From positions 325,793-389,792 of the forward strand of contig OY762213.1 of the NCBI GenBank assembly GCA_963665385.1: a stretch of 64,000 bases of DNA. The letters run 5' to 3'. The notes under the pieces are model-generated. The model saw nothing but the letters and a program-made list of their open reading frames with translations, was not told where the DNA came from and did not search any database. The position numbers and the translations under genes are program-made. This DNA comes from Dehalococcoidia bacterium (GTDB lineage Bacteria > Chloroflexota > Dehalococcoidia > UBA6926). Shown here piece by piece: positions 17,598 through 31,571 of this stretch. Position 1 is the stretch's first letter. Each line of letters starts with the position of its first letter.

Positions 17598-17771
17598 TCA
17601 TTCCCGCGAAAGCAGGAATCCAGAAATCCATGTCACACAGCGATTCCTATTGTAGCGCGGAGCGGGCAGAGCCTCCGAATCCCCCGCGTAGGCGGGAGCC
17701 CACGGCGCCCGCAGGGCGCTTCCTCTCCGCCATTCCGCCGCTCATGTCATTCTGAGCGCAGCGAAGAATCC
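17598..17771. repeat. Interspersed hairpin repeats R1 (17598-17624) and R3 (17746-17771)
   Basis: gtcattcccgcgaaagcaggaatc and gtcattctgagcgcagcgaagaatcc, same families as at 23.2 and 30.6 kb. Confidence 0.6.
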
Positions 17772-17794: not shown

Positions 17795-19357
17795 TCATTC
17801 GGTGGGCCGATGAAAGTACGAAGACGGCCCATCCAACCACCTGTTCTCCAGCTGCGTCTCAACGAGATCTTCGACCCGAGCCATCTCGACACTGTCGGCC
17901 TTTACAGGAGCGCCTGGTTTGACCACCCCTCCAGCAACGTAGACGTGCCGTTTTTCGTAAAGGTAGTCGCATCCAAAAAGGCAGAGCGGCATGACGATGT
18001 AAGGATCACGACGCTCCCCTTCGTTGCAATGCTCGCGACGCTTCTTGTGAGCCGTCACTAAAGCCTCAACAGCAAACTCGCGACCACAGAGGGCGCACAG
18101 TTCCCTTTCTTTGTCCTCGAAGAGCCATTCACTCAAAATGTGTTGCTCCGTGCGTGCCGACTGTTCAGAAGTGGAGTCCGTGTCCCTGAGTTCATCCAGA
18201 CGGTTCCTAAATGTCAGGTAGCGCTCCAACGCCGGTTCGTTTGGGCGCACAGAATCCTGTGTCTCAACGGTTGAATACCTGTAGTTTTGTCTGCCATAGG
18301 ATTCGTCAACAAAGACTAGAGGAGAATTCGTGAGAGCCTTCTGAATAGCGGCCTCAGAATACCTCCCGATATTCTTATCTTCCAAGAAGCGCCTAATTTC
18401 TGGTAGTTGTGTTTCACCCCGTTCCTTCAAATATTGAACTGCATCATTCTCCAACGGACTTAAGGCTGGGGCTCTACCCTTAGGTCTAAAGGTCCGTGAG
18501 AGGCTGAGATTATTGCCTTGCGCAACGAAGAGCCGAGATGTGCGAAGATACTGCTCAATTGTTTCGACGGGGGGAAGCAGGTCCTCGTTTATCCGCTTTA
18601 GTGCCCTATGAATTGACGGAGCCAATTTACCCACGTCGCATACTTGGAAAGCAGTCAGGGCCTTTCTTGCGGCGTTGATTAGGGCATTCTGTTTTTCTTC
18701 GAACAAATACCAAGTGACACCTCCCGCCTCTCTAGTCCACGTGGTGGGGTTGCCGCGGATGATTTGGATTGCAAACCCCTTGTTAACGCGATAGAAATTG
18801 TCTACCATCTCCAGATCCTCGAAACGAACGATGCCCCGTAGTCCCTGAAGCTTCCTTGCTGTGGCAAGGTGCGCCTTAAGAGAGTCCAATTGGCCTTGGT
18901 CTACCAAGAAGAAGTCATTTGAATCGTATGTGCCACTGCTGGTGACTCTTTGGAGTTCGGGGGTGTAGGAATCGTGTCTGTGGGGCAGACTCATGTCGTC
19001 GGCTAGGCGCAAGAGGCCCGGTAAGCTCAAGGATCCTATGGGAAAGCCCCGACGTAGTGATTCTGCTTGAAGTTCAGAAGCAGTCCAAAACGCCCGAGAC
19101 TCTACCGTATCTAGGACTTTCTGCAATGACGGCAATGTGGCGAAAGGCGATTGACTGCGGAAGTCTCTCTGCAAGATCTGTCCAACCCGCTGTTTACTCA
19201 AACCGAAGTCGTCCCCAGCTTGTTGAAGCGTTGGCAATGGTGGTTGCCCAAAGCCGTAGTAATGGCAAATGAGGTCGATGTTTCGAAGTTTTTCTCCCCG
19301 CGAATGCTCTCTAATATTCTTGTCAAGGAATGCACGTATTTCGCCAAGTATAGTCAT
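17795..19357 (-). CDS. Orphan protein with N-terminal sigma-70 region-4-like HTH and C-terminal HNH nuclease motif
   Basis: N-terminal LSKQRVGQILQRD HTH; C-terminal CALCG...VTAHKKRREHCNEG...PLCLFGCD fits CxxC...H...N...C...C HNH pattern; local GC about 50% vs about 62% flanks. Confidence 0.55.
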   Translation of the reverse strand: MTILGEIRAFLDKNIREHSRGEKLRNIDLICHYYGFGQPPLPTLQQAGDDFGLSKQRVGQILQRDFRSQSPFATLPSLQKVLDTVESRAFWTASELQAESLRRGFPIGSLSLPGLLRLADDMSLPHRHDSYTPELQRVTSSGTYDSNDFFLVDQGQLDSLKAHLATARKLQGLRGIVRFEDLEMVDNFYRVNKGFAIQIIRGNPTTWTREAGGVTWYLFEEKQNALINAARKALTAFQVCDVGKLAPSIHRALKRINEDLLPPVETIEQYLRTSRLFVAQGNNLSLSRTFRPKGRAPALSPLENDAVQYLKERGETQLPEIRRFLEDKNIGRYSEAAIQKALTNSPLVFVDESYGRQNYRYSTVETQDSVRPNEPALERYLTFRNRLDELRDTDSTSEQSARTEQHILSEWLFEDKERELCALCGREFAVEALVTAHKKRREHCNEGERRDPYIVMPLCLFGCDYLYEKRHVYVAGGVVKPGAPVKADSVEMARVEDLVETQLENRWLDGPSSYFHRPTE

Positions 19358-19396: not shown

Positions 19397-20683
19397 CTAC
19401 CCCCCCGCCGTCCGCGCCGCCACCCGCACATCCCTAGCGAAGCTGGTCCGTAGTGCGAGAGCAATTGCGAACATCACCGCGATCGCCCCGCCGATGCCCA
19501 CCGCCGTCGGCGCGCCGAACCACTCCGCCAGCGCCCCCACCTGCAGGCCGCCCAGCGGAATCAGGCTGTACGTCAGGCTGAACACGCCCATCACCCGGCC
19601 CCGCAGGTCCTCCGGCACCGCGCTCTGCAGCAGCGTCAGATTGGTTATTTGGGACAACGAGTTAAAGGTTCCCGATAGGAATAGCGCGCCAAGCGACAGC
19701 CACAGGACCGTGCTGAATGCGAACAGCATCACCATCGCCCCAAACAGTCCGCCGCCGCCCAGCAACAAGACGAGCGGCCAGCGACCCTTCACCCAGAACG
19801 CCGCAAGGCCCGTGCCGATGAGCCCGCCCGCCGCCGATGCCCCCAACATCATCCCCATGCCGTCCGCGCCTATGCCCAGGATGTCCCGCGCGAAGACCGG
19901 CATCAGTTGGATATACGCCACGCCAAAGAAACTGTCCACGAACGTCAGCAGGATAAGACTCGCGAAGAGGTTGCGACGTGCGATGAACGTGATCCCCTCG
20001 AACAGTTCCTTGAACACGTTGCCGCGAACCCGATCCACGCGGGGAATCCGCACGAAAAAGAGGAGCAGCGTGCCAAGTCCGTAGCCCAGGGTTACCGACC
20101 CGAACGTCGCCGCGGAACCGATGCGCTCGATCAGCACTCCGCCCAGACCCGGGCCAAACACCCGTGTCCCTTGCCACACGGACGAGCTGAGCGCCAGGGC
20201 GTTCATCAGCAGCCGTCGGTCCGGAATCAGCGCCGGGACCACCGCCGTGCGTGTCGGCTGATCGATTCCCTGGATGACTCCGATGGCTGCGGACGCCGCC
20301 AGCAGGTGCCACGGTGCGAGTACCTCCCCAAATGTCAGCATCATCAGGACCGTCACCGTGATGGTCATGCAGACCTGCGTGGCGATAAGCAGTGCCAGCC
20401 GACTGACCCGGTCTGCCGCCACCCCACCAATCAGGTTCACGCTGATCGTGCCGAACCCCATGGCGAAACCCAGGTAGCCGAGGAAGATCTCCGAATTGGT
20501 CAGCTCATACCCCTCCCACGCAATGACGATGCGCAGGATCTGCCAGCCCATCACGAACGAGACCGCGCTGAACCAGTAATTCCGGAAATTGGGGACGGCC
20601 AGAGAGCCGAGAGGAGACGTAACGGCGCGGTGCGTCTGCTCTTGCTCCTGCTGTTCAGTATCCGTTTCGCGCGGAGTGGACAT
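19397..20683 (-). CDS. MFS transporter
   Basis: 12 predicted TM helices, MFS-like loop motifs; start MSTPRE (alternative upstream ATG 20722). Confidence 0.75.
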   Translation of the reverse strand: MSTPRETDTEQQEQEQTHRAVTSPLGSLAVPNFRNYWFSAVSFVMGWQILRIVIAWEGYELTNSEIFLGYLGFAMGFGTISVNLIGGVAADRVSRLALLIATQVCMTITVTVLMMLTFGEVLAPWHLLAASAAIGVIQGIDQPTRTAVVPALIPDRRLLMNALALSSSVWQGTRVFGPGLGGVLIERIGSAATFGSVTLGYGLGTLLLFFVRIPRVDRVRGNVFKELFEGITFIARRNLFASLILLTFVDSFFGVAYIQLMPVFARDILGIGADGMGMMLGASAAGGLIGTGLAAFWVKGRWPLVLLLGGGGLFGAMVMLFAFSTVLWLSLGALFLSGTFNSLSQITNLTLLQSAVPEDLRGRVMGVFSLTYSLIPLGGLQVGALAEWFGAPTAVGIGGAIAVMFAIALALRTSFARDVRVAARTAGG

Positions 20684-20934
20684 TAACCTCGTTCCGCGAA
20701 TCCCAGGGCAAGCCTGCCCCATACGTGATAGGGGCGGGGGCGGGGAGGAATCCGTAGGCGCATATAATACAGCGGATGCCGTTGCCCACGCCGCCGGTGT
20801 GGACTCTCACCGGGGCGCCAGTGCGAGCGGCATCTCTGGGGGATACGTGTCCGCATTCGTTGAACAGAGTGCCGGTCCGCGCGAATCGCGTCGGCAACGC
20901 CGCGCGCCCTCTGGCAAACGCAACCGCTCAAGCA

Positions 20935-22271
20935 TCATGGGCATGGCGCTGCACCTCATCGCCGCCCTCCTGATCATCGTCGGATTCGGCGGCCTCGCCA
21001 TATCCGCCGCTCCCGTCTTCCAGGAAAGTTCCGGCGGACACGCCGCCCTCGTCGAAGTCGACGGCACGATTCAACCGGTGACCGTTCGTTATGTCTCCCG
21101 CGCCCTCAGCAGGGCCGCCGACGACAATGCCGAGATCGTCATCATCCGTCTCGACACCCCCGGCGGCTTGCTGGACTCAACCCGCGACATCGTTGAGGAG
21201 ATATTCGCCAGCCGTGTTCCCGTGGTTGTGTACGTCGCCCCCAGCGGCGCGCAGGCCGCCTCCGCAGGCACGTTCATCACGGCGGCAGGCCATGTTGCCG
21301 TCATGTCCTCCGCCACCAACATCGGCGCGGCGTCCCCGGTCGGCGGTGGGGGCGAAGACCTGCCTGACACGTTGGAATCCAAGGCGAGGCAGGACGCCGC
21401 CGCCTTCCTCAGGAGCATCGGAGAGCGGACGGGCCGCAACCCGCAGGCATTGGAGGCGACCGTTCTGGAAGCCCGTTCCTACACCGCTGTTGAAGCCCTC
21501 GACGAGGGCATCATCGACTTCCTCGCTGAAGACATCGACGACCTTCTCGCAAACTTGGACGGGCGCACGGTGACCATAAGCGGCAGCGAAATCATCCTTG
21601 AAACCGACGGTCTCCCCTTGCGAGACATCGAGAAGACGGCCCTGGAAGGCTTCCTGGAGATCATCTCCAACCCCAACATCGCCTTCCTGTTGCTCACTGT
21701 GGGCGGGCTCGGAATCATCATTGAGCTCATCAGCCCCGGCTTCCTTGGGCCCGGCATCGTCGGCCTTATCGCGCTCGCGCTGGCCTTCGTCGCCCTTGGC
21801 AACCTGCCGGTCAACTGGGTCGGGTTCGGCCTCATCGTGGCTGCGATGGTTTTCTTCTACATGGAGATGCAGGCCCCGGGAGTCAGCGTCTTCGGCATCG
21901 GAGGCGCTTTCAGCTTCCTTATCGGTGGCTTCCTCTTATTCGGCAGTTTCGAGGCGCCGCCCATAGATTCGCCCAGTTTCCGTGTCAGCTACTGGATGCT
22001 GGGCGCAGTCGGTATCGCCGTGTTCGCCGGCCTCGGCCTGACCTTCCGGGCGCTGGCTCAATACCGAGGGGCCGATTACACCTCGCCAACGACAATCCCT
22101 GTGGGCATGTCCGGCAGGGTTACCGATGCCATCAACCCCACCGGCTCAGTGCGTGTGCACGGCGAAATCTGGACTGCCGAGTCCGCAGACGGTGAGCCGA
22201 TAGAGGAGGGAGCGGCAATCGTCGTCGTCGGGATGGACGGTTTGATCGTGACAGTTAGAAGAGAAGAGTGA
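20935..22271 (+). CDS. NfeD-family membrane-bound serine protease (ClpP-class)
   Basis: ClpP-like domain IRLDTPGGLLDSTRDIVEEI...YVAPSGAQAASAGTFI, C-terminal TM segments and OB-fold; upstream of SPFH gene. Confidence 0.8.
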
Positions 22272-22305
22272 GCCGTTCACACGAACGGACGAAAGGAGCA
22301 GGCAA

Positions 22306-23160
22306 ATGATCCCGTATATCGCGGTAGTCAAGCAATACGAGCGCCTGGCGGTTTTCACGCTCGGCAAGTACTCCGGCATGAGACAGCCCGGACTCAATCT
22401 CCTTGTGTGGCCATTCCAGGCCACGCAAAAGGTCGATCTCCGCGAATTCGTTATCGATATCCCTCGCCAGACCAACATCACCCTCGACAACGCCCCCATA
22501 GACATCGACTTCCTCGTCTACATGCGGGTGCAGGAATCCGACGCCGAACGAGCCGTTCTGGAGGTCGTCGACTTCCGCTCCGCCGTCGTCGGCATTGCCA
22601 CCACCAACCTGAGAGCCGTCATCGGTGAGATGAACCTTGACGATGTCCTCTCACAGCGAGAGCGCATCAACGAATCCCTGCGCACCAAGCTTGACGAGGT
22701 CACGGAACGCTGGGGCATCAAGGTCACCCAGGTTGAGATTCGCGAGGTCGAGCCCAACCGTGACATCCAGGAGGCCATGAACCGCCAGATGTCCGCGGAG
22801 AGAATCCGTCGCGCAGCCGTCACGGAGGCAGAGGGAACTCGACAGGCCGCAATCACCGTCGCCGAGGGCGAAAAGCAGTCCGCGATCCTCAGGGCCGAGG
22901 GTGAACGGCAGGCCGAGATTCTGAATGCCGAGGGCGATCAACAGGCCGCCATCCTCCGAGCTGACGGCTTCGCCACCGCCCTTGACCGCATTTCAGGCGT
23001 CGCGCGCGGCATAGACACCAACACCCTCAGCCTGCAGTACCTGGAGACTCTCAAGGACGTGGGCGCAGCGCCGTCGACCAAGTTCATCTTCCCGATGGAG
23101 TTCACCAGCCTCCTCCGCCCGTTCACAAACATGGTGTCACCCAACGACGACAACGAATAG
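22306..23160 (+). CDS. SPFH/Band-7 (stomatin/prohibitin-like) protein
   Basis: SPFH domain with coiled-coil EAEG/RAEG repeat region; canonical NfeD-SPFH operon. Confidence 0.85.
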   Translation: MIPYIAVVKQYERLAVFTLGKYSGMRQPGLNLLVWPFQATQKVDLREFVIDIPRQTNITLDNAPIDIDFLVYMRVQESDAERAVLEVVDFRSAVVGIATTNLRAVIGEMNLDDVLSQRERINESLRTKLDEVTERWGIKVTQVEIREVEPNRDIQEAMNRQMSAERIRRAAVTEAEGTRQAAITVAEGEKQSAILRAEGERQAEILNAEGDQQAAILRADGFATALDRISGVARGIDTNTLSLQYLETLKDVGAAPSTKFIFPMEFTSLLRPFTNMVSPNDDNE

Positions 23161-23200: not shown

Positions 23201-23310
23201 CGTCATTTCCGCGAAAGCATGCCCGCGTCCCCATTCACCCTGAGCCTGTCGAAGGGTGCTCCAATGGCATCCTGAGCCTTCCTATGTCATTCTGAGCGCA
23301 GCGAAGAATC
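23201..23310. repeat. Cluster of hairpin repeats R1(degenerate)-R2-R2(partial)-R3
   Basis: cattcaccctgagcctgtcgaagggtg (6-bp stem caccct/agggtg) and gtcattctgagcgcagcgaagaatc. Confidence 0.6.
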
Positions 23311-23688: not shown

Positions 23689-23771
23689 CAGAGACGCCTA
23701 AGACTCCGATGCCGGAACGCGGCGAACCAACGTATTCAATAACCCAATACGAATCGCGAACCGAGAAAAAA

Positions 23772-23845
23772 TCGGGGCGCCCGGATTTGAACCGGGGACC
23801 TCCGCGTCCCGAACGCGGCGCGCTGCCAAACTGCGCTACGCCCCG
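23772..23845 (-). tRNA. tRNA-Pro (anticodon CGG), CCA not encoded
   Basis: CGGGGCGTAGCGCAGTTTGGCAGCGCG CCGCG TTCGGGA CGCGG ... CCCGG TTCAAAT CCGGG CGCCCCG A. Confidence 0.85.
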
Positions 23846-23957
23846 ACCGACAAACAAACCGCGGGCAGCAAAACCGCCCGCTCGCTTAAGAGTATACGGG
23901 TATCCGCCCCACAAAGAATCCCCTCCCTCACAGAGGGGGGAGGGTTAGGGTGGGGGG

Positions 23958-24704
23958 CTAATCGGTCAAGATAGATCGGGCAATTGGTTCGAGCACGCGC
24001 TGGACTTCCTCATCAAGCTCGTCCTGCGGGTAGTGGACGGGTTGCTTGGCCGCGCCGGGCCCGCGGCCGGGCCATCGTTTGGCTAGAGCTTTTGCAAGGT
24101 GAGGGAATTCCTTAAAGTCAAGTAGCCTACACCGACTCTGGGCATCTATATTCTGAAGCCAACCTTGGAGTGAAATACGGAGCTTTAGAGATCTCAATGC
24201 AGAGCGGGTATGGATTTCACGGGCATTGGTCAGACTAGAACCAAATGTGAATTGGGCGTCTTTCAATTCCTGATCCTGTAACCAGAGGCCACGGGCGAAC
24301 ACATCCCGTTCAATTCGTTCGGGGTCGGATTCTCGTGCCGGAATAAGTTCTTGCCAACTGGAGTTTGTCAGGCCCGAATTCCGTATACCTAACCGACATT
24401 TGGCCCCAAGGGCTTGCCAGAGAAACTTCTGCTCGCCTGGCTCGAGATTCGTGGATTTGAGCAAGTGTGAAATCGACAGTGCCCGCCCCAATGACCACCG
24501 CCGTACGAATGCTAACTCTGCTTGAGATTCAGCCTCGACGGAGATGACGAGTTCCAGTGCATTGTCCAGCATGTCGTCGATTTCACGGTCAAGATCCTCG
24601 GCAATGGCTCGGTGCTCCTCTTCTCCGAACCGGTAACGGCGTGTTGTGCGCACGCGATCATCGTGACTACCAGAATCAGATTCTGACCAGAGCAAGACCG
24701 GCAT
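23958..24704 (-). CDS. Hypothetical protein, third gene of HARE-HTH/GHKL operon (translationally coupled)
   Basis: ATGA start/stop overlap with upstream ATPase gene; 248 aa, no recognisable motif. Confidence 0.5.
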   Translation of the reverse strand: MPVLLWSESDSGSHDDRVRTTRRYRFGEEEHRAIAEDLDREIDDMLDNALELVISVEAESQAELAFVRRWSLGRALSISHLLKSTNLEPGEQKFLWQALGAKCRLGIRNSGLTNSSWQELIPARESDPERIERDVFARGLWLQDQELKDAQFTFGSSLTNAREIHTRSALRSLKLRISLQGWLQNIDAQSRCRLLDFKEFPHLAKALAKRWPGRGPGAAKQPVHYPQDELDEEVQRVLEPIARSILTD

Positions 24705-27253
24705 CAGTGACTCTCCTCATACATGCGCATCATGTGCGCGGCGCAGTTCCGAAAATCCTCCACAAAGTCTATGTACGGCACCTCAGACTGGTTCCCGCCA
24801 GCCCCCTCCAGCAATTCCATCATCTCCACAAAGCGCCCCCACTTTTCGCTGTCAACCCCCGGCGGCTCACTTGTGCAGAGATCGTCCAGACGAGTTCTGT
24901 CATGGTCTTTCCAAGCTGGCTCTAGTGCCCATTGGATAAGCGCTTCGCAGGTGATTTCAAGCAAAAAAGAGTTGCGCCTTTCGGTTCCATTGGCTGCATC
25001 TGCCTCCATCAATTCCCGGTTTGTGGCATATCGCTCAGGGAACTGGAGCACTGTCTCTCCGTCGATTTCCTTGAGCTGCCAACGAGGTAGCCTCTCGTCT
25101 GGCCGTTGGTCTAGTCGGAACGGTAATCCCCCTTGATTCGGCGGATCAACTTCAATGTGGAGCATGTAAGACGCCGCAGCGGAATCAAGGCTACCATCGG
25201 TATCAAAGAGATCAGCGTTTAACTGATGTCGACCTGGCTCAACTGGGATAGCGATTGCGTTCTCGTCAGGCAAGGGTAACTTATCCGGTGCCACGAAGAT
25301 AATGTCACCCATCCAGACTGCGTGCTGATCGGACGTGTCTCCTTCTGGTGTACCACGGAGAGAACGTGGCTCTCCATCGGCAAGCATTGGGGTTGCCTCC
25401 GAAAGACTGGCATTCAGAGAAACGTCTATAACTCTAGGCGTATTGTTGTGAGCGTTTATCTGCGCCGCCACCCTTTCACCATAGTTAATGCGTTCCCTGC
25501 CCGAGGCGGATCGTGTCTGGTTTTCGACTGAGATGGATAATGTGAGTGGATCACGCTCAGGGTTCTGCGGGTCTTGATGCACGTAAATGGAACGAGAAGC
25601 GCGTGCAACCTGTCGCCCATCATGCTGAACGCGCGCCGTCAGCTTCCATTTGCCCTGCAGAGCAAGCTGAAGCTGATCCGGTCTAGCGGCATTGCGGACT
25701 ATCTGGAGATTACCGACCTTCAAATTCCCTTCTCTGTTATAGAAGCTAATCGCCTCATCTGTTCGTACTGAGACCCTTACCGATTCATCCACGTGCTGAG
25801 CCTCTAGAGAGACGGTCACATTTGCGGGGAAAGACGAAGAACTTGTGACAAGCACCTGAATATTCTCCAGTAGCTGTCCCCAATCGACGCGTGCTACTGT
25901 CGAATCAGGGAAAGACAAGGAGAGTGAGCAGTTCCAGGACTCCGTTGGCTGCTTCCCGCTGGTTCCGAACCATTGCAGAATTTCGCGGGCAATGTCCGTC
26001 TGTAGTGCTGGCGTAGGTGGACGCGCCGGTTCCTGCATCCACCCCAAGTCCTTCGCGAAGGCTTCGACAGCGCTCTCGACTTGTCTGTAGATTGCCTGCA
26101 CAAGACCTTGTTTCCTGTCAAACTTGTGATGCTGTGGCGACTCAAGATTACGAAGTTCCTTTTCCAACGATTGATCGAATTCCACGAATCCCCGGAACCC
26201 GGACCGCCTGCCTGGGGGAATAAAGCCCGACAACTCTCTATCCCCGCTACCTATAGTTGTTATCCACTGGTGACCGCGTAGAAGCTGAACGCCTTCAAAT
26301 TGCGCATCATCACTCTCCGCATCCGTGGATTGCAGCCGTTCGTCATGTATGAGGACGATTCGCTTTATCCGCAATCCGTCCCCAAGGTCTACATTCTCAG
26401 TTGATCGCACTTCGACACCTTTAGGCTGTGAGCCTATCCAGGGTTCGTCTTGCCACCATGATGGGACGGTAACTGTATCCTCGCGCCGTGTCTCCTCATC
26501 AATCACTCTAATCTCTAGCGCACCGGTCTGGACGGCGCGCCACCAGCAGCGCCGCAGCCACTGCACCAGTTCTCCATTCTTGACGGCCGTCACCGCCTCC
26601 TCAGACAGGTAAGGGACGGCAACACGGGTGCCGACTTTTTTGAGCGGCTCAAGTCCGAGGTCTATCTCTATTCCGGTTTCGTCCGTGAATTGACCACTGA
26701 CCAATTCCTCTGCTTCGGAATCTTGCCAGGGGGGTGACTGAATTGTGTCTACAGGATTAGCGTTGCGAACACCCAGCCTATATAGGCCGTCGGCAAGAAG
26801 CGTGTCGTACAACATCATCATACGGCGTCGTCCGGGTGCAGAAGGTGGCGAGGAATGATACAGGAAGGCCGACTTACCCTGTCCCCTCGATCCTCGAGCT
26901 GAATCATCTGACTTCTTGGTAAAGCCCTGACCCTCGAATGCAGCCCAATTCTCATCCGTTTCCAATTCGTAACCCCGCTCACTGAGTTCAGCCTGAGAAA
27001 GGGCAGGGCCGCGTAGGCCGTAAGTGCCGGAATCCGTCACTGTCAAGAGGTGACGTGTTCCCTCGTATCGTGACTCCTGTTTTCGAAGCCGATACTCCAC
27101 TCTGACTATCGGACTAGCGTGCTTGGCGTCCAAAGAGTTTTGTACCGGCTCCTGGGCAAGCGCCCGAATTGGGCCATTGTCGCCGTAACTCTGGATGATC
27201 GATTGGACTTGTTGCACCATATCGCTTGGCGCAGGTTGATAGTTTGAAGCCAT
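24704..27253 (-). CDS. MORC/MutL-like GHKL (Bergerat-fold) ATPase, large multidomain protein
   Basis: N-box EPVQNSLDAK, G1 box VTDSGTYGL, G2 box GSRGQGKSAF (MORC-type GxGxKSA); about 600-aa uncharacterised C-terminal region; start MASNYQ at 27253 with GAGAGGGGAGGG SD (longer ORF to 27391 would overlap upstream gene). Confidence 0.65.
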   Translation of the reverse strand: MASNYQPAPSDMVQQVQSIIQSYGDNGPIRALAQEPVQNSLDAKHASPIVRVEYRLRKQESRYEGTRHLLTVTDSGTYGLRGPALSQAELSERGYELETDENWAAFEGQGFTKKSDDSARGSRGQGKSAFLYHSSPPSAPGRRRMMMLYDTLLADGLYRLGVRNANPVDTIQSPPWQDSEAEELVSGQFTDETGIEIDLGLEPLKKVGTRVAVPYLSEEAVTAVKNGELVQWLRRCWWRAVQTGALEIRVIDEETRREDTVTVPSWWQDEPWIGSQPKGVEVRSTENVDLGDGLRIKRIVLIHDERLQSTDAESDDAQFEGVQLLRGHQWITTIGSGDRELSGFIPPGRRSGFRGFVEFDQSLEKELRNLESPQHHKFDRKQGLVQAIYRQVESAVEAFAKDLGWMQEPARPPTPALQTDIAREILQWFGTSGKQPTESWNCSLSLSFPDSTVARVDWGQLLENIQVLVTSSSSFPANVTVSLEAQHVDESVRVSVRTDEAISFYNREGNLKVGNLQIVRNAARPDQLQLALQGKWKLTARVQHDGRQVARASRSIYVHQDPQNPERDPLTLSISVENQTRSASGRERINYGERVAAQINAHNNTPRVIDVSLNASLSEATPMLADGEPRSLRGTPEGDTSDQHAVWMGDIIFVAPDKLPLPDENAIAIPVEPGRHQLNADLFDTDGSLDSAAASYMLHIEVDPPNQGGLPFRLDQRPDERLPRWQLKEIDGETVLQFPERYATNRELMEADAANGTERRNSFLLEITCEALIQWALEPAWKDHDRTRLDDLCTSEPPGVDSEKWGRFVEMMELLEGAGGNQSEVPYIDFVEDFRNCAAHMMRMYEESH

Positions 27254-27272
27254 GGCTCGAGCCCTCCCCTCT

Positions 27273-27755
27273 CTAGCCGCCCCGCGTCCGGCGCCGCGCC
27301 GGCCGTTGCCGCGCCCCCACATTTCGGGCATTTGGAAAGTCCTTACGAAGACCATAGAAGCCCTTGGACGTAGGCCGCACGAAGCGTTCATCTAGTACGA
27401 GTCGCGCCACCAGCGTGGCAGGAGGATCGTTGCCGTTGATTTGTCCACCGAGCCGCTGCACTTCCTTCGCTAGGTCCTTGTAATACATCGGCTTGTTCGG
27501 CTGCTGCAGCAACACCTTCTCCGCTAGATCGGTTATCGATTCTCCATCGGAGCGATGTTCAGCTGGACTGCTTGCTGTTGAACTGTCCGTCGACGTTTCA
27601 ACATGCTCATCGGCAAGTAGACCGTCCACGTGGCGGAGCCGTTCAATGATTTTGGCCAAGCGTTGTTCTGATTCGGCAATCTTTTCTCGGACCTCTTCCA
27701 ACTCCGCCCGCAGGCTTGTTCGTTCCGTCTGTAACATTCGCTCTAACACGGTCAT
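27273..27755 (-). CDS. Coiled-coil + HARE-HTH domain protein
   Basis: N-terminal coiled coil; C-terminus MYYKDLAKEV...ATLVARLVLDERFVRPTSKGFYGLRKDF matches HARE-HTH / RNAP delta N-domain pattern (DGRF...WGLR); GGAGGGG SD. Confidence 0.55.
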   Translation of the reverse strand: MTVLERMLQTERTSLRAELEEVREKIAESEQRLAKIIERLRHVDGLLADEHVETSTDSSTASSPAEHRSDGESITDLAEKVLLQQPNKPMYYKDLAKEVQRLGGQINGNDPPATLVARLVLDERFVRPTSKGFYGLRKDFPNARNVGARQRPARRRTRGG

Positions 27756-27773: not shown

Positions 27774-27804
27774 CTGTTATGCAGAAAAATAACACGCATA
27801 ACAG
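27774..27804. promoter_or_regulatory. Putative operator: inverted repeat CTGTTATGC-N13-GCATAACAG upstream of HARE-HTH operon
   Basis: Perfect 9-bp arms immediately upstream of SD in an AT-rich promoter region. Confidence 0.4.
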
Positions 27805-28143
27805 GAACGTGTCAAGATAATAACACCATACAAGCACGGTCTATGTATTACGGTGCGACCATCAGAATCTGCGGGCGATCCGTTGAATCATGTTTGGGAT
27901 ACGGTGCCGAGTGGCCCGAACTAGTGGCGCATTACGCCGCCGTGCCCTGCCGTGTTGTAGATGTCGCGAACTGCGAGGCCGATATCGTCCGGTCAACCCT
28001 CAGTCGTGCGGAAGTACGAGTTGACGTCACGGGTGTCCAGGATCTGCGCCGCCTCCGCGCCGAACAGAACCGTAGAAACGAACCGGCGCGCGCGTCTCCA
28101 CGTGCCGCCCATCGGCCGAGACATAGCGTCGGTCACGTCGCCC

Positions 28144-30458: not shown

Positions 30459-30701
30459 GTCGTTCCCGTGCTTGACACGGGAACCCAGCCCCCCGTTCAT
30501 CCTGAGCCTGTCGAAGGGTGACCCTCTCCCGTCACCCCCGCCCCCTCTTCGTCATTCCCGCGCAGGCGGGAATCTGAATCACGGTATGCAGCCAACCTCC
30601 GTGACGCTCCCCCCTCATTCCGGCGAATGCCGGAATCCATCGGAACTCCCCGCATGGTGGACTGGCCTAGCGGTCTGTCATTCTGAGCGCAGCGAAGAAT
30701 C
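30459..30701. repeat. Dense cluster of five hairpin repeats (R1 variant, R2, R1, R1', R3)
   Basis: gttcccgtg-cttga-cacgggaac; catcctgagcctgtcgaagggtg; cattcccgcgcaggcgggaatc; cattccggcgaatgccggaatc; gtcattctgagcgcagcgaagaatcc. Confidence 0.7.
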
Positions 30702-30767
30702 CAAGACCGTGTTTGACACAGCAGATGTACACATCACCATGTATGTACTACGTGAGAGGAGTAAACC

Positions 30768-31571
30768 GTGGACCTATTGGAGGCATGGAAGAATTGGCAA
30801 CCGGGCGACAACCCGCCGTACGCATTGGAGATGGATGCCGACGAATTGAATTCACGCCGCTGGCAAAGAAAGGCCGTAACTTTCACACCGGATCAGGCCA
30901 GAGAAGATACCGCTCTGTCGCAGGCAATTAACGACCGCCGGTTGCACTTGGGCCTGTTCCCGCTTCCATTCATTGGGGATCTCAAAAACGCCTCAATCTA
31001 CGTGCTGATGGCAAACCCGGGTCTCAACCATAGCGATTATGACAACGTGACGGACGGCGACGCGAATTGGTTGCGGGGCCAACTCACACAAGAATTCGGC
31101 GACTCATTGCCATTCGGAACAGCGTTTGACCCGAAAAATGTGGAAAAGGGAGGCAAGGACTATACGCGTGACAAATTGAAGCGGACGGTAGAATTCATCG
31201 CCGAGCGCAGCGCAAGGTCCTATTCCGAAACTCTCAAGGAATTCGCCTTGAAGCTCGCCGTCATCCAGCTGGTTCCTTACCACAGCAAGAAATTCGTTAG
31301 TGGGGCGAACATGCTGCCGTCCGCTGACCTCGTGGTCAAATTCGTCAAAAACACAGTCGTGCCGCGTGTCAGGAATGGAGAAGCAATCCTGATTGTCACC
31401 CGGCGCATCAAGGATTGGAACCGCAATCAGGGCCTGCCGAGAGACCTTGTCGATGCTGGGCGTATAGTGCTTTACGATAGGCCGGGCGAACCCCTTTCGG
31501 CGTCCTTGGGCCCCCGCTCTCGCGGCGGCAAGGCAATCCTCCGCCACTTTGGCATTCCCGCAGACGACTAA
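30768..31571 (+). CDS. Hypothetical protein in lower-GC patch
   Basis: 267-aa ORF, about 53% GC, directly after repeat cluster; no confident motif. Confidence 0.4.
   Translation: MDLLEAWKNWQPGDNPPYALEMDADELNSRRWQRKAVTFTPDQAREDTALSQAINDRRLHLGLFPLPFIGDLKNASIYVLMANPGLNHSDYDNVTDGDANWLRGQLTQEFGDSLPFGTAFDPKNVEKGGKDYTRDKLKRTVEFIAERSARSYSETLKEFALKLAVIQLVPYHSKKFVSGANMLPSADLVVKFVKNTVVPRVRNGEAILIVTRRIKDWNRNQGLPRDLVDAGRIVLYDRPGEPLSASLGPRSRGGKAILRHFGIPADD

Follow-up and report, generated by a model that had tools for sequence, protein, structure and literature searches.

A Chloroflexota Gene Trio Encoding a HARE-HTH Protein, a MORC/SMCHD1-like GHKL ATPase, and a Helical Partner

Organization of the Locus

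The subject of this work is a set of three genes, g1, g2, and g3 (the trio), on contig OY762213.1 of a Dehalococcoidia bacterium. The stretch of DNA analyzed, 64,000 nucleotides in length (positions 325,793 to 389,792 of the contig), is referred to as the window, and its own numbering is used throughout. ORF calling confirms that the trio consists of three co-directional minus-strand open reading frames (ORFs) at 23958–27755, as proposed in an original prediction made from the sequence. These constitute a self-contained operon. The first gene encodes a coiled coil and a HARE-HTH winged helix, the second a GHKL ATPase that structurally resembles MORC and SMCHD1 proteins, and the third a small helical partner. 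The trio and the signals that surround it are as follows.

27786–27815, minus strand: sigma-70-like promoter upstream of g1; TTGACA, 18 nt, TG-extended TATTTT; 10/12 consensus matches
27273–27755, minus strand: g1, 160 aa; coiled coil and HARE-HTH
24704–27253, minus strand: g2, 849 aa; GHKL ATPase
23958–24704, minus strand: g3, 248 aa; partner protein
23920–23938, minus strand: terminator-like G+C hairpin, 20 nt past the g3 stop
23861–23881: second terminator-like hairpin, directly ahead of tRNA-Pro
23771–23846, minus strand: tRNA-Pro(CGG), downstream of g3

The three genes lie close together in a single cluster, all in the same direction, and are preceded by a promoter-like site; this predicted site, called by consensus match only, is located in an AT-rich spacer, and a GGAGGGG ribosome-binding site lies directly 5′ of the g1 ATG. 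The spacing between g1 and g2 is 19 nt and contains GGGGAGGG ahead of the g2 start, such that the tight linkage originally described holds at a distance 1 nt shorter than the 20 bp given. Although the g2 ORF is open from 27391, the conserved start is the ATG at 27253, where M1 is invariant and the N termini of 28 homologues align. The g2/g3 junction reads TGATG, a 1-nt overlap, and not the ATGA overlap first reported. Terminator-like hairpins are no more numerous in the region than in shuffled sequence, and the two listed above are assigned from their position only. The GC content of the trio is indeed lower than that of the remaining window, at 54.6% versus 61.0% rather than the approximately 50% and 62% first estimated.

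Structure and Motifs of the g2 ATPase

The g2 protein is an ATPase composed of a GHKL domain and an S5-fold transducer, with every catalytic motif intact. Its architecture, delimited from structure for the three domains past the ATPase domain, is as follows.

26534–27253, minus strand: N-terminal strap and GHKL (Bergerat) ATPase domain, residues 1–240
26054–26533, minus strand: S5-fold transducer, residues 241–400
25028–25936, minus strand: beta-sandwich (Ig/CARDB/MG-like) domains, residues 440–742
24707–25027, minus strand: helical C-terminal domain, residues 743–849

The signatures of the GHKL superfamily, an ExxxNxxD motif, a DxGxG-like motif, and a glycine-rich GxxGxG lid, are all found in g2, where they correspond to E35/N39/D42, D74-S-G-T-x-G79, and G121-S-R-G-Q-G-K127 and are invariant in 28 g2 homologues that share 38–91% identity. 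The complete Bergerat ATPase signature recognized in the original prediction is therefore real, and the fold is confirmed by structure. The Bergerat fold is followed, as expected, by an S5-fold transducer with a conserved basic residue, and K297/R298 of this domain are invariant in the 28 homologues. Two further residues in the C-terminal part of the S5 domain, E371 and H375 (ExPQH), are also invariant. The candidate segment G321-VQLLRGQQWI fits the MORC S5 motif except for an invariant Q329 at the R position, an equivalence judged from secondary structure. The roughly 600 residues past the ATPase domain, initially left unassigned, resolve into the S5 transducer, the beta-sandwiches, and the helical domain.

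The fold of g2 is recognized from structure alone. Pfam, NCBIfam, PADLOC, and phmmer and hmmsearch comparisons with the PDB gave nothing usable for g2 or g3: g2 has no Pfam or NCBIfam match, the Pfam GHKL family HATPase_c_3 is not matched at E values up to 1, and no PDB GHKL sequence is matched by g2 with phmmer or with a 28-sequence profile in hmmsearch. No entry in the assembly collection searched has exactly the sequence of g2. Structural comparisons, on the other hand, return SMCHD1 (21.7; 306 residues aligned), MORC3 (20.6), and MORC2 (18.0) as the best matches, followed by MutL (15.9) and, further down, Hsp90 and topoisomerase VI-B (about 15), which bears out the assignment to the MORC/MutL class of GHKL proteins.

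Orthology of g2 to a housekeeping MutL, Hsp90, or histidine kinase had been named beforehand as the outcome that would count against a specialized role, and g2 is none of these. A MutL identity was rejected because the C-terminal half of g2 comprises beta-sandwiches and a helical domain in place of a MutL dimerization or endonuclease domain, and because the family occurs in only 50 of 185,579 species genomes, unlike the universal distribution of a housekeeping protein. Neither the HisKA/DHp domain of a histidine kinase nor the middle and C-terminal domains of Hsp90 are found in g2, and both identities were likewise rejected.

The HARE-HTH Protein g1 and the Partner g3

The upstream protein, g1, is modular, and its elements from N to C terminus are as follows.

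27621–27755, minus strand: N-terminal coiled coil, residues ~1–45
Between the coiled coil and the HARE-HTH domain: acidic/Ser-rich linker
27333–27539, minus strand: HARE-HTH winged helix, residues ~73–141
Behind the HARE-HTH domain: conserved basic tail, YPNARNVGARRR

Residues 73–128 of g1 match Pfam HARE-HTH (PF05066) with an E value of 3.2e-8 and a score of 34.3 bits, above the cut-off of 25.9, and the same HARE-HTH annotation is precomputed for the orthologues in L051, L053, and L054 (L numbers denote loci surveyed in other genomes); the coiled coil and HARE-HTH domain that had been proposed for the 160-aa protein are thus both present. An alignment of 43 orthologues shows that the winged helix and the basic tail are conserved. 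The RNA polymerase delta subunit (RpoE) has the HARE-HTH fold, which is also present in eukaryotic chromatin proteins (ASXL) and in fusions to restriction endonucleases, in which it has been proposed to read the DNA-modification state. The delta-subunit model itself, TIGR04567, matches g1 at 24 bits (E 3.4e-5), below its equivalog cut-off of 42. The coiled coil (residues 5–50 in this comparison) shows weak, non-significant matches to the clamp-helix region of the RNA polymerase gamma/beta′ subunits of cyanobacteria (PDB 8syi_D, E 0.17; NCBIfam NF002729, E 0.068). This resemblance probably reflects coiled-coil composition and is retained as a lead because the trio adjoins rpoB in Anaerolineae (see below).

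The third protein, g3, folds into an N-terminal beta-hairpin and a helical bundle, for which no fold relatives are found in the PDB or BFVD. It carries a Chloroflexota-specific motif, RWPGRGPGSAKQPVHY.

Distribution and Co-conservation in Chloroflexota

One genome per GTDB species was surveyed, and the 185,579 species genomes yielded 50 matching loci. All 50 belong to Chloroflexota, namely, to Dehalococcoidia and to Anaerolineae of the Phototrophicaceae/Aggregatilineales group. The order g1-g2-g3, followed by tblastn, is kept in 44 of these loci, such that the co-conservation set out in advance as a test of the module is observed; g1 is found upstream of g2 in 48. The six exceptions are varied. 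L029 and L049 are contig ends, L044 and L047 are degraded copies of which only fragments are left, and in L038 (8001–13980) g2 is broken by an IS21-type element with an IstB-like ATPase. In L014 (8001–14619), a g2 homologue of 37% identity occurs without g1 and g3 and is followed, 46 nt on, by an SNF2 helicase (DUF3670, SNF2, and Helicase_C domains) and then by a SWIM zinc-finger protein. In a further approximately nine loci g2 is split into two to three ORFs; many of these genomes are long-read metagenome-assembled genomes (MAGs), in which assembly frameshifts are possible. In total, more than 345 proteins of approximately 850 aa belong to the g2 family; none bears a name that indicates a function, and the few with any name at all are listed as hypothetical protein.

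A Sister Family in Proteobacteria and Archaea

A profile search of 1.84 billion representative sequences returned 412 relatives of g2, which include a sister family of shorter proteins (~660–690 aa) from Gammaproteobacteria, other Pseudomonadota, and archaeal MAGs. The sister proteins align over positions 7–574 of the g2 profile and also contain an ExPxHY motif of the paraMORC2-type ExxxH pattern. In approximately 67 of roughly 75 sister loci with a complete GHKL ORF, a gene for a 215–255-aa partner lies within ~30 nt of the GHKL stop, usually 0–15 nt past it. In hhalign, a profile built from 61 of these partners gives a full-length match to the g3 profile (probability 96.3%, E 2e-9); the 61-sequence profile is needed, as single-sequence hhalign comparisons of g3 with sister partners are not significant. 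The sister partner is homologous to g3, and the conserved core therefore consists of a GHKL gene and a g3-like gene. In bacteria and archaea alike, proteins of this GHKL clade have g3 as an obligatory partner; what Chloroflexota add to the core are the HARE-HTH gene and the extra beta-sandwich.

The sister genes often have genes of restriction-modification contexts as neighbors. C5-cytosine methylases occur in 6 of ~30 loci and Vsr in three, genes of the HhH-GPD family occur near approximately seven loci, often directly past the partner gene, and HpaII- and MTES_1575-type endonucleases, GmrSD, and a PLD-SNF2 helicase are also observed. These neighbors match the contexts described for MORC/paraMORC genes by Iyer et al. 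2008 (PMC2292703).

At least 23 sister loci (among L055–L138, e.g., L060:~1020–1270) also have a conserved upstream ORF of ~75–85 aa, usually within ~40 nt of the GHKL start, with the consensus ...ERFxRxATxRTNxxLxxLxxLGNCSNxxxYxYxxxDxxKIFxxI.... This ORF has no PADLOC match and no similarity to g1; it was considered as a g1 counterpart and rejected as unrelated, and it may represent a third component of the sister systems.

Sequence Divergence and Replacement of g2

In 41 of 47 loci, the trio has a lower GC content than its flanks (mean difference, −4.2 points), and its proteins diverge rapidly. When the window is compared with L046 and L004, the flanking CinA, orf101, MFS, and orf109 proteins share 83–89% identity, versus 66–72% for g1, 40–62% for g2, and 56–61% for g3; in DNA comparisons, no other segment of the shared region is as dissimilar as the trio. 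Conservation along g2 is highest in the ATPase domain and lowest in the C-terminal half.

A sharper case is provided by L015 and L036, a pair with the Anaerolineae locus. NuoD and RpoB of these two loci are 98% identical and g1 and g3 are 89% identical, whereas g2 is only 33% identical. In blastn comparisons, the DNA is 95.7% identical up to the g1 stop and 95.4% identical from ~13 nt before the g3 start, and nothing aligns across the g2 ORF in between (L015:7919–10572 versus L036:7896–10524). The g2 gene has therefore been swapped as a cassette, with conserved g1 and g3 arms on either side. The GHKL motifs are kept in both types of g2 allele, including the divergent type-B alleles. As a test of vertical descent, g2 divergence was compared with that of NuoD and RpoB, and no correlation was found (r ~ −0.15), because two allele types exist. 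The pattern of divergence and cassette exchange is expected under diversifying or balancing selection in conflict, and not for a housekeeping factor, and the replacement of g2 only points to the component that is under selection.

Genomic Surroundings of the Trio

The original prediction also placed the trio in an insertion next to tRNA-Pro, bracketed by hairpin repeats, and neither part of this proposal holds. Beyond the window, tRNA-Pro adjoins the trio in no loci but those of its three closest relatives (L004, L045, and L046), which share the gene order CinA–Yip1-like–orf101–trio–tRNA-Pro; CinA in the relatives with this synteny is only 85–89% identical. No tRNA lies within 8 kb in 46 of the 50 loci. 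The trio is located 5′ of the tRNA gene, no integrase-like ORF adjoins it in the window, and the longest exact match between its flanks is 9 nt, the commonest value in shuffled sequences. A tRNA-Pro-targeted insertion was rejected on these grounds. The hairpin repeats lie on one side of the trio only and recur across the window, and they were rejected as island borders.

The repeats are of two kinds, a palindromic hairpin, CATTCCCGCGAAAGCGGGAAT, at 228, 17599, 23667, 30553, and 30616, and an 18-mer, CCTGAGCCTGTCGAAGGG, at 23239, 29090, and 30501. Both are intergenic and far above chance (0 expected), and they are dispersed REP or MITE-like elements of this genome. Three other features of the window were observed. 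A 520-aa ORF (17795–19357, minus strand) lies in a low-GC patch (0.50–0.54) beside the hairpin at 17599; it contains an N-terminal HTH string that is sigma-region-4-like and a C-terminal Cys/His-rich, HNH-nuclease-like stretch, has no PDB sequence match, and may be another accessory or defense-type gene. A 267-aa ORF (30768–31571, plus strand; GC 0.54–0.57) without a Pfam or PDB match has the hairpins at 30553 and 30616 upstream, and the segment ~30600–31520 is without an equivalent in L046 or L004, both of them syntenic relatives, and looks like a strain-specific insertion. Lastly, an NfeD-SPFH pair (20589–23160) between the MFS gene and orf109/tRNA-Pro does not align to the 18.6-kb syntenic stretch of L046, in which orf109 and the MFS gene are ~240 nt apart; this difference is a local rearrangement or indel adjoining the trio.

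Discussion

We interpret the trio, with no better than even confidence, as a chromosomally resident prokaryotic module of the MORC/paraMORC type that most likely acts on DNA in genome conflict, through restriction, exclusion, or silencing of foreign DNA. A possible defense role is favored by the low GC content, the rapid divergence, the replacement of g2 only, and the failure to find members outside Chloroflexota, and further by some defense-gene neighbors and by the restriction-modification context of the sister family. A minority of the neighbors at the variable Chloroflexota loci encode type IIG restriction-modification, MADS-like, DndB, and Vsr proteins, AAA_21 ATPases, transposases, and HigB/HigA toxin-antitoxin pairs.

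MORC, MutL, and GyrB proteins dimerize upon ATP binding, and g2 would be expected to do likewise, closing into a clamp. The g1 protein would dimerize through its coiled coil and bind DNA through its winged helix and basic tail, and it may act as a reader of the DNA-modification state, as proposed for HARE-HTH domains in restriction endonuclease fusions. The variable C-terminal half of g2, with its beta-sandwiches and helical domain, could confer target or partner specificity, and g3 may serve as an adaptor or effector. No nuclease, helicase, or methylase domain is recognizable in g1, g2, or g3 by Pfam, NCBIfam, PADLOC, or structure, and the output would therefore be non-nucleolytic or be provided by g3 or by an unlinked host enzyme. 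A non-nucleolytic output might take the form that it does for MORC and SMCHD1, in which DNA is entrapped or compacted in an ATP-dependent manner.

A more specific version of this reading, which we offer as speculation, is that the trio is a nuclease-free immune or xenogeneic-silencing machine, in which the HARE-HTH reader loads a MORC/SMCHD1-like clamp and its helical partner onto foreign or unmodified DNA to entrap or compact it, and in which the clamp gene is swapped as a cassette between the g1 and g3 arms in an arms race. Were this so, the trio would represent a prokaryotic counterpart to MORC/SMCHD1-type silencing joined with a DNA reader of the ASXL type, and possibly its antecedent. If it serves immunity or silencing, the trio would reveal how a GHKL clamp can work without a nuclease of its own, provide a tractable bacterial model for MORC/SMCHD1 mechanics, and add a defense family for Chloroflexota, from which no validated system was found in the literature searched. 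In any case, the g2 family has hundreds of members and is invisible to sequence-profile libraries.

Several observations weigh against a role in conflict, beginning with the lack of a recognizable effector domain noted above. No system in PADLOC-DB v2 matches the locus; g1 gives only coiled-coil noise, and g3 and the sister partners give nothing. Searches of IMG/VR viral contigs, phage genomes, and plasmids turned up no member of the g2 family. The window neighbors of the trio are ordinary genes (NfeD, SPFH, Yip1-like, and CinA), with no defense genes among them, and most of the 139 neighbors at the 31 variable Chloroflexota loci are metabolic. In ~19 Anaerolineae species, the trio occupies a fixed site between nuoA and rpoB, with nuoFEDCBA divergent from the trio and rpoB convergent. 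The stable synteny in Anaerolineae and in the lineage of the window is long-term vertical retention, which is unusual for defense islands.

This retention is also an argument for a different role, nearer to housekeeping than to defense, that of a lineage-specific nucleoid or transcription-associated factor in which the HARE-HTH protein would anchor a MORC-like clamp on the chromosome or on RNA polymerase, so that chromosomal regions are organized or silenced. Besides the nuoA/rpoB site, nuoC/nuoD follow the trio in four Dehalococcoidia loci, the trio lacks a nuclease or methylase, and the top structural matches of g2, MORC and SMCHD1, are eukaryotic chromatin compactors; g1 has the fold of the delta subunit, with a sub-threshold TIGR04567 match (E 3.4e-5), and a coiled coil weakly like the beta′/gamma clamp helices (E 0.07–0.17, not significant). 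The delta model is, however, below its cut-off, and the domain order of g1 is reversed and its tail basic. A factor of this kind would also have to accommodate a family matched in only 50 of 185,579 species genomes, a GC content persistently below that of the flanks, divergence far faster than that of syntenic housekeeping genes, the replacement of g2 alone between near-identical genomes, and copies that are IS-disrupted or degraded (L038, L044, and L047). We regard it as unlikely. More doubtful is a role as a DNA-repair matchmaker, in which the MutL-like ATPase and its partner would coordinate repair enzymes (nucleases or glycosylases) whose genes lie at other sites, for instance where 5-methylcytosine has been deaminated. 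MutL stimulates Vsr, which provides a parallel, and the MutL-like structure of g2, the repeated placement of sister genes beside C5-methylase, Vsr, and HhH-GPD genes, the presence of Vsr in 2 of the 31 variable Chloroflexota loci, and the proximity of CinA, a damage-inducible protein, in the window all fit such a role. The best structural matches of g2 are nevertheless MORC and SMCHD1 and not MutL, no MutL C-terminal dimerization or endonuclease domain is present, the Chloroflexota trio is usually without a linked methylase or glycosylase, and allele replacement and rapid divergence are unexpected for a repair factor.

A recently integrated mobile island targeting tRNA-Pro, with the trio as its cargo, is an explanation that is largely refuted and to which we give very little credence. 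It would account for the lower GC content and for the adjacent tRNA-Pro in the window, L004, L045, and L046. The operon, however, lies 5′ of the tRNA gene and not at its 3′ end, integrase and repeats above chance level are missing from its flanks, most loci have no tRNA nearby, and the CinA-Yip-trio-tRNA order is kept in relatives whose CinA proteins have already diverged to 85–89% identity. A resident MORC/paraMORC-type conflict module thus remains the interpretation that we prefer.

Comparison with Known Systems

The original prediction could name no defense system with this architecture and saw no methyltransferase or nuclease partner; the former statement agrees with PADLOC, which gave only a weak N-box match to a candidate system, and the latter with the lack of any recognizable partner of either kind in the trio. 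The single PADLOC match is between g2 residues 27–60 and the candidate PDC-M33A (E 4.7e-5, 34 residues). A member of the sister family matches PDC-M33A better (6e-14) than g2, for which the match is confined to the N-box/G1 region, and the partners are without a PADLOC match. The likeness is one of distant similarity within the GHKL superfamily, not of system membership. No description of a HARE-HTH plus GHKL operon, or of PDC-M33, was found in the literature searched.

The winged helix of g1 is the same as that of the RNA polymerase delta subunit and of HARE-HTH-fused restriction endonucleases. The g1 protein differs from the delta subunit in that its HTH domain is C-terminal to a coiled coil, its tail is basic rather than acidic, and the match is below cut-off, and it differs from the endonucleases in that it carries no fused nuclease.

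In the literature searched, the only experimentally validated bacterial paraMORC is VcSduA, a nuclease-fused protein. This paraMORC3-type Shedu type I-D protein is an anti-phage GHKL-nuclease whose activity requires ATPase motif I (PMC12137116). Like g2 it is a bacterial GHKL ATPase, one that is used in phage defense; in contrast to the trio, it acts as a single protein and ends in a DUF4263 PD-(D/E)xK nuclease domain, for which g1, g2, and g3 have no Pfam match.

The closest described systems are the prokaryotic MORC and paraMORC1–5 GHKL families, especially paraMORC2, which were predicted by Iyer, Abhiman & Aravind 2008 to act in restriction systems (PMC2292703). Like these proteins, g2 has at its N terminus a GHKL domain in which every ATP-binding motif is present, followed by an S5 domain and a C-terminal extension specific to its family, and its sister family adjoins cytosine methylases, Vsr, and restriction endonucleases. 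With an SNF2 helicase beside it, the L014 g2 homologue resembles the MORC-SNF2 operons described by Iyer et al. 2008. The MORCs sensu stricto have an S5 motif, GhXhhpXXRhl (PMC2292703), in which g2 appears to have Q where MORCs have R, and g2 does not match Pfam HATPase_c_3. The hallmark of paraMORC2 is a strongly conserved ExxxH in the C-terminal part of the S5 domain (PMC2292703), with which E371...H375 of g2 agrees when compared by the published motif description. The trio differs from paraMORC2 operons, which pair with superfamily II (SFII) helicases, RE-fold nucleases, Dcm, or Vsr (PMC2292703), in lacking a helicase, nuclease, or methylase, g1 and g3 being the only partners in 44 of 50 loci, and from MORC operons in having a HARE-HTH protein and a novel helical partner, neither of which is described with MORCs in the literature searched.

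The sequence identity of g2 to eukaryotic MORC2, MORC3, and SMCHD1 is only 13–14%. CW, coiled-coil, and SMC-hinge domains are absent from g2, the C-terminal half of which consists of beta-sandwiches and a helical domain, and two separate small proteins accompany it as partners. Despite these differences, g2 shares with the eukaryotic proteins the clamp architecture formed by a GHKL domain and an S5 domain.

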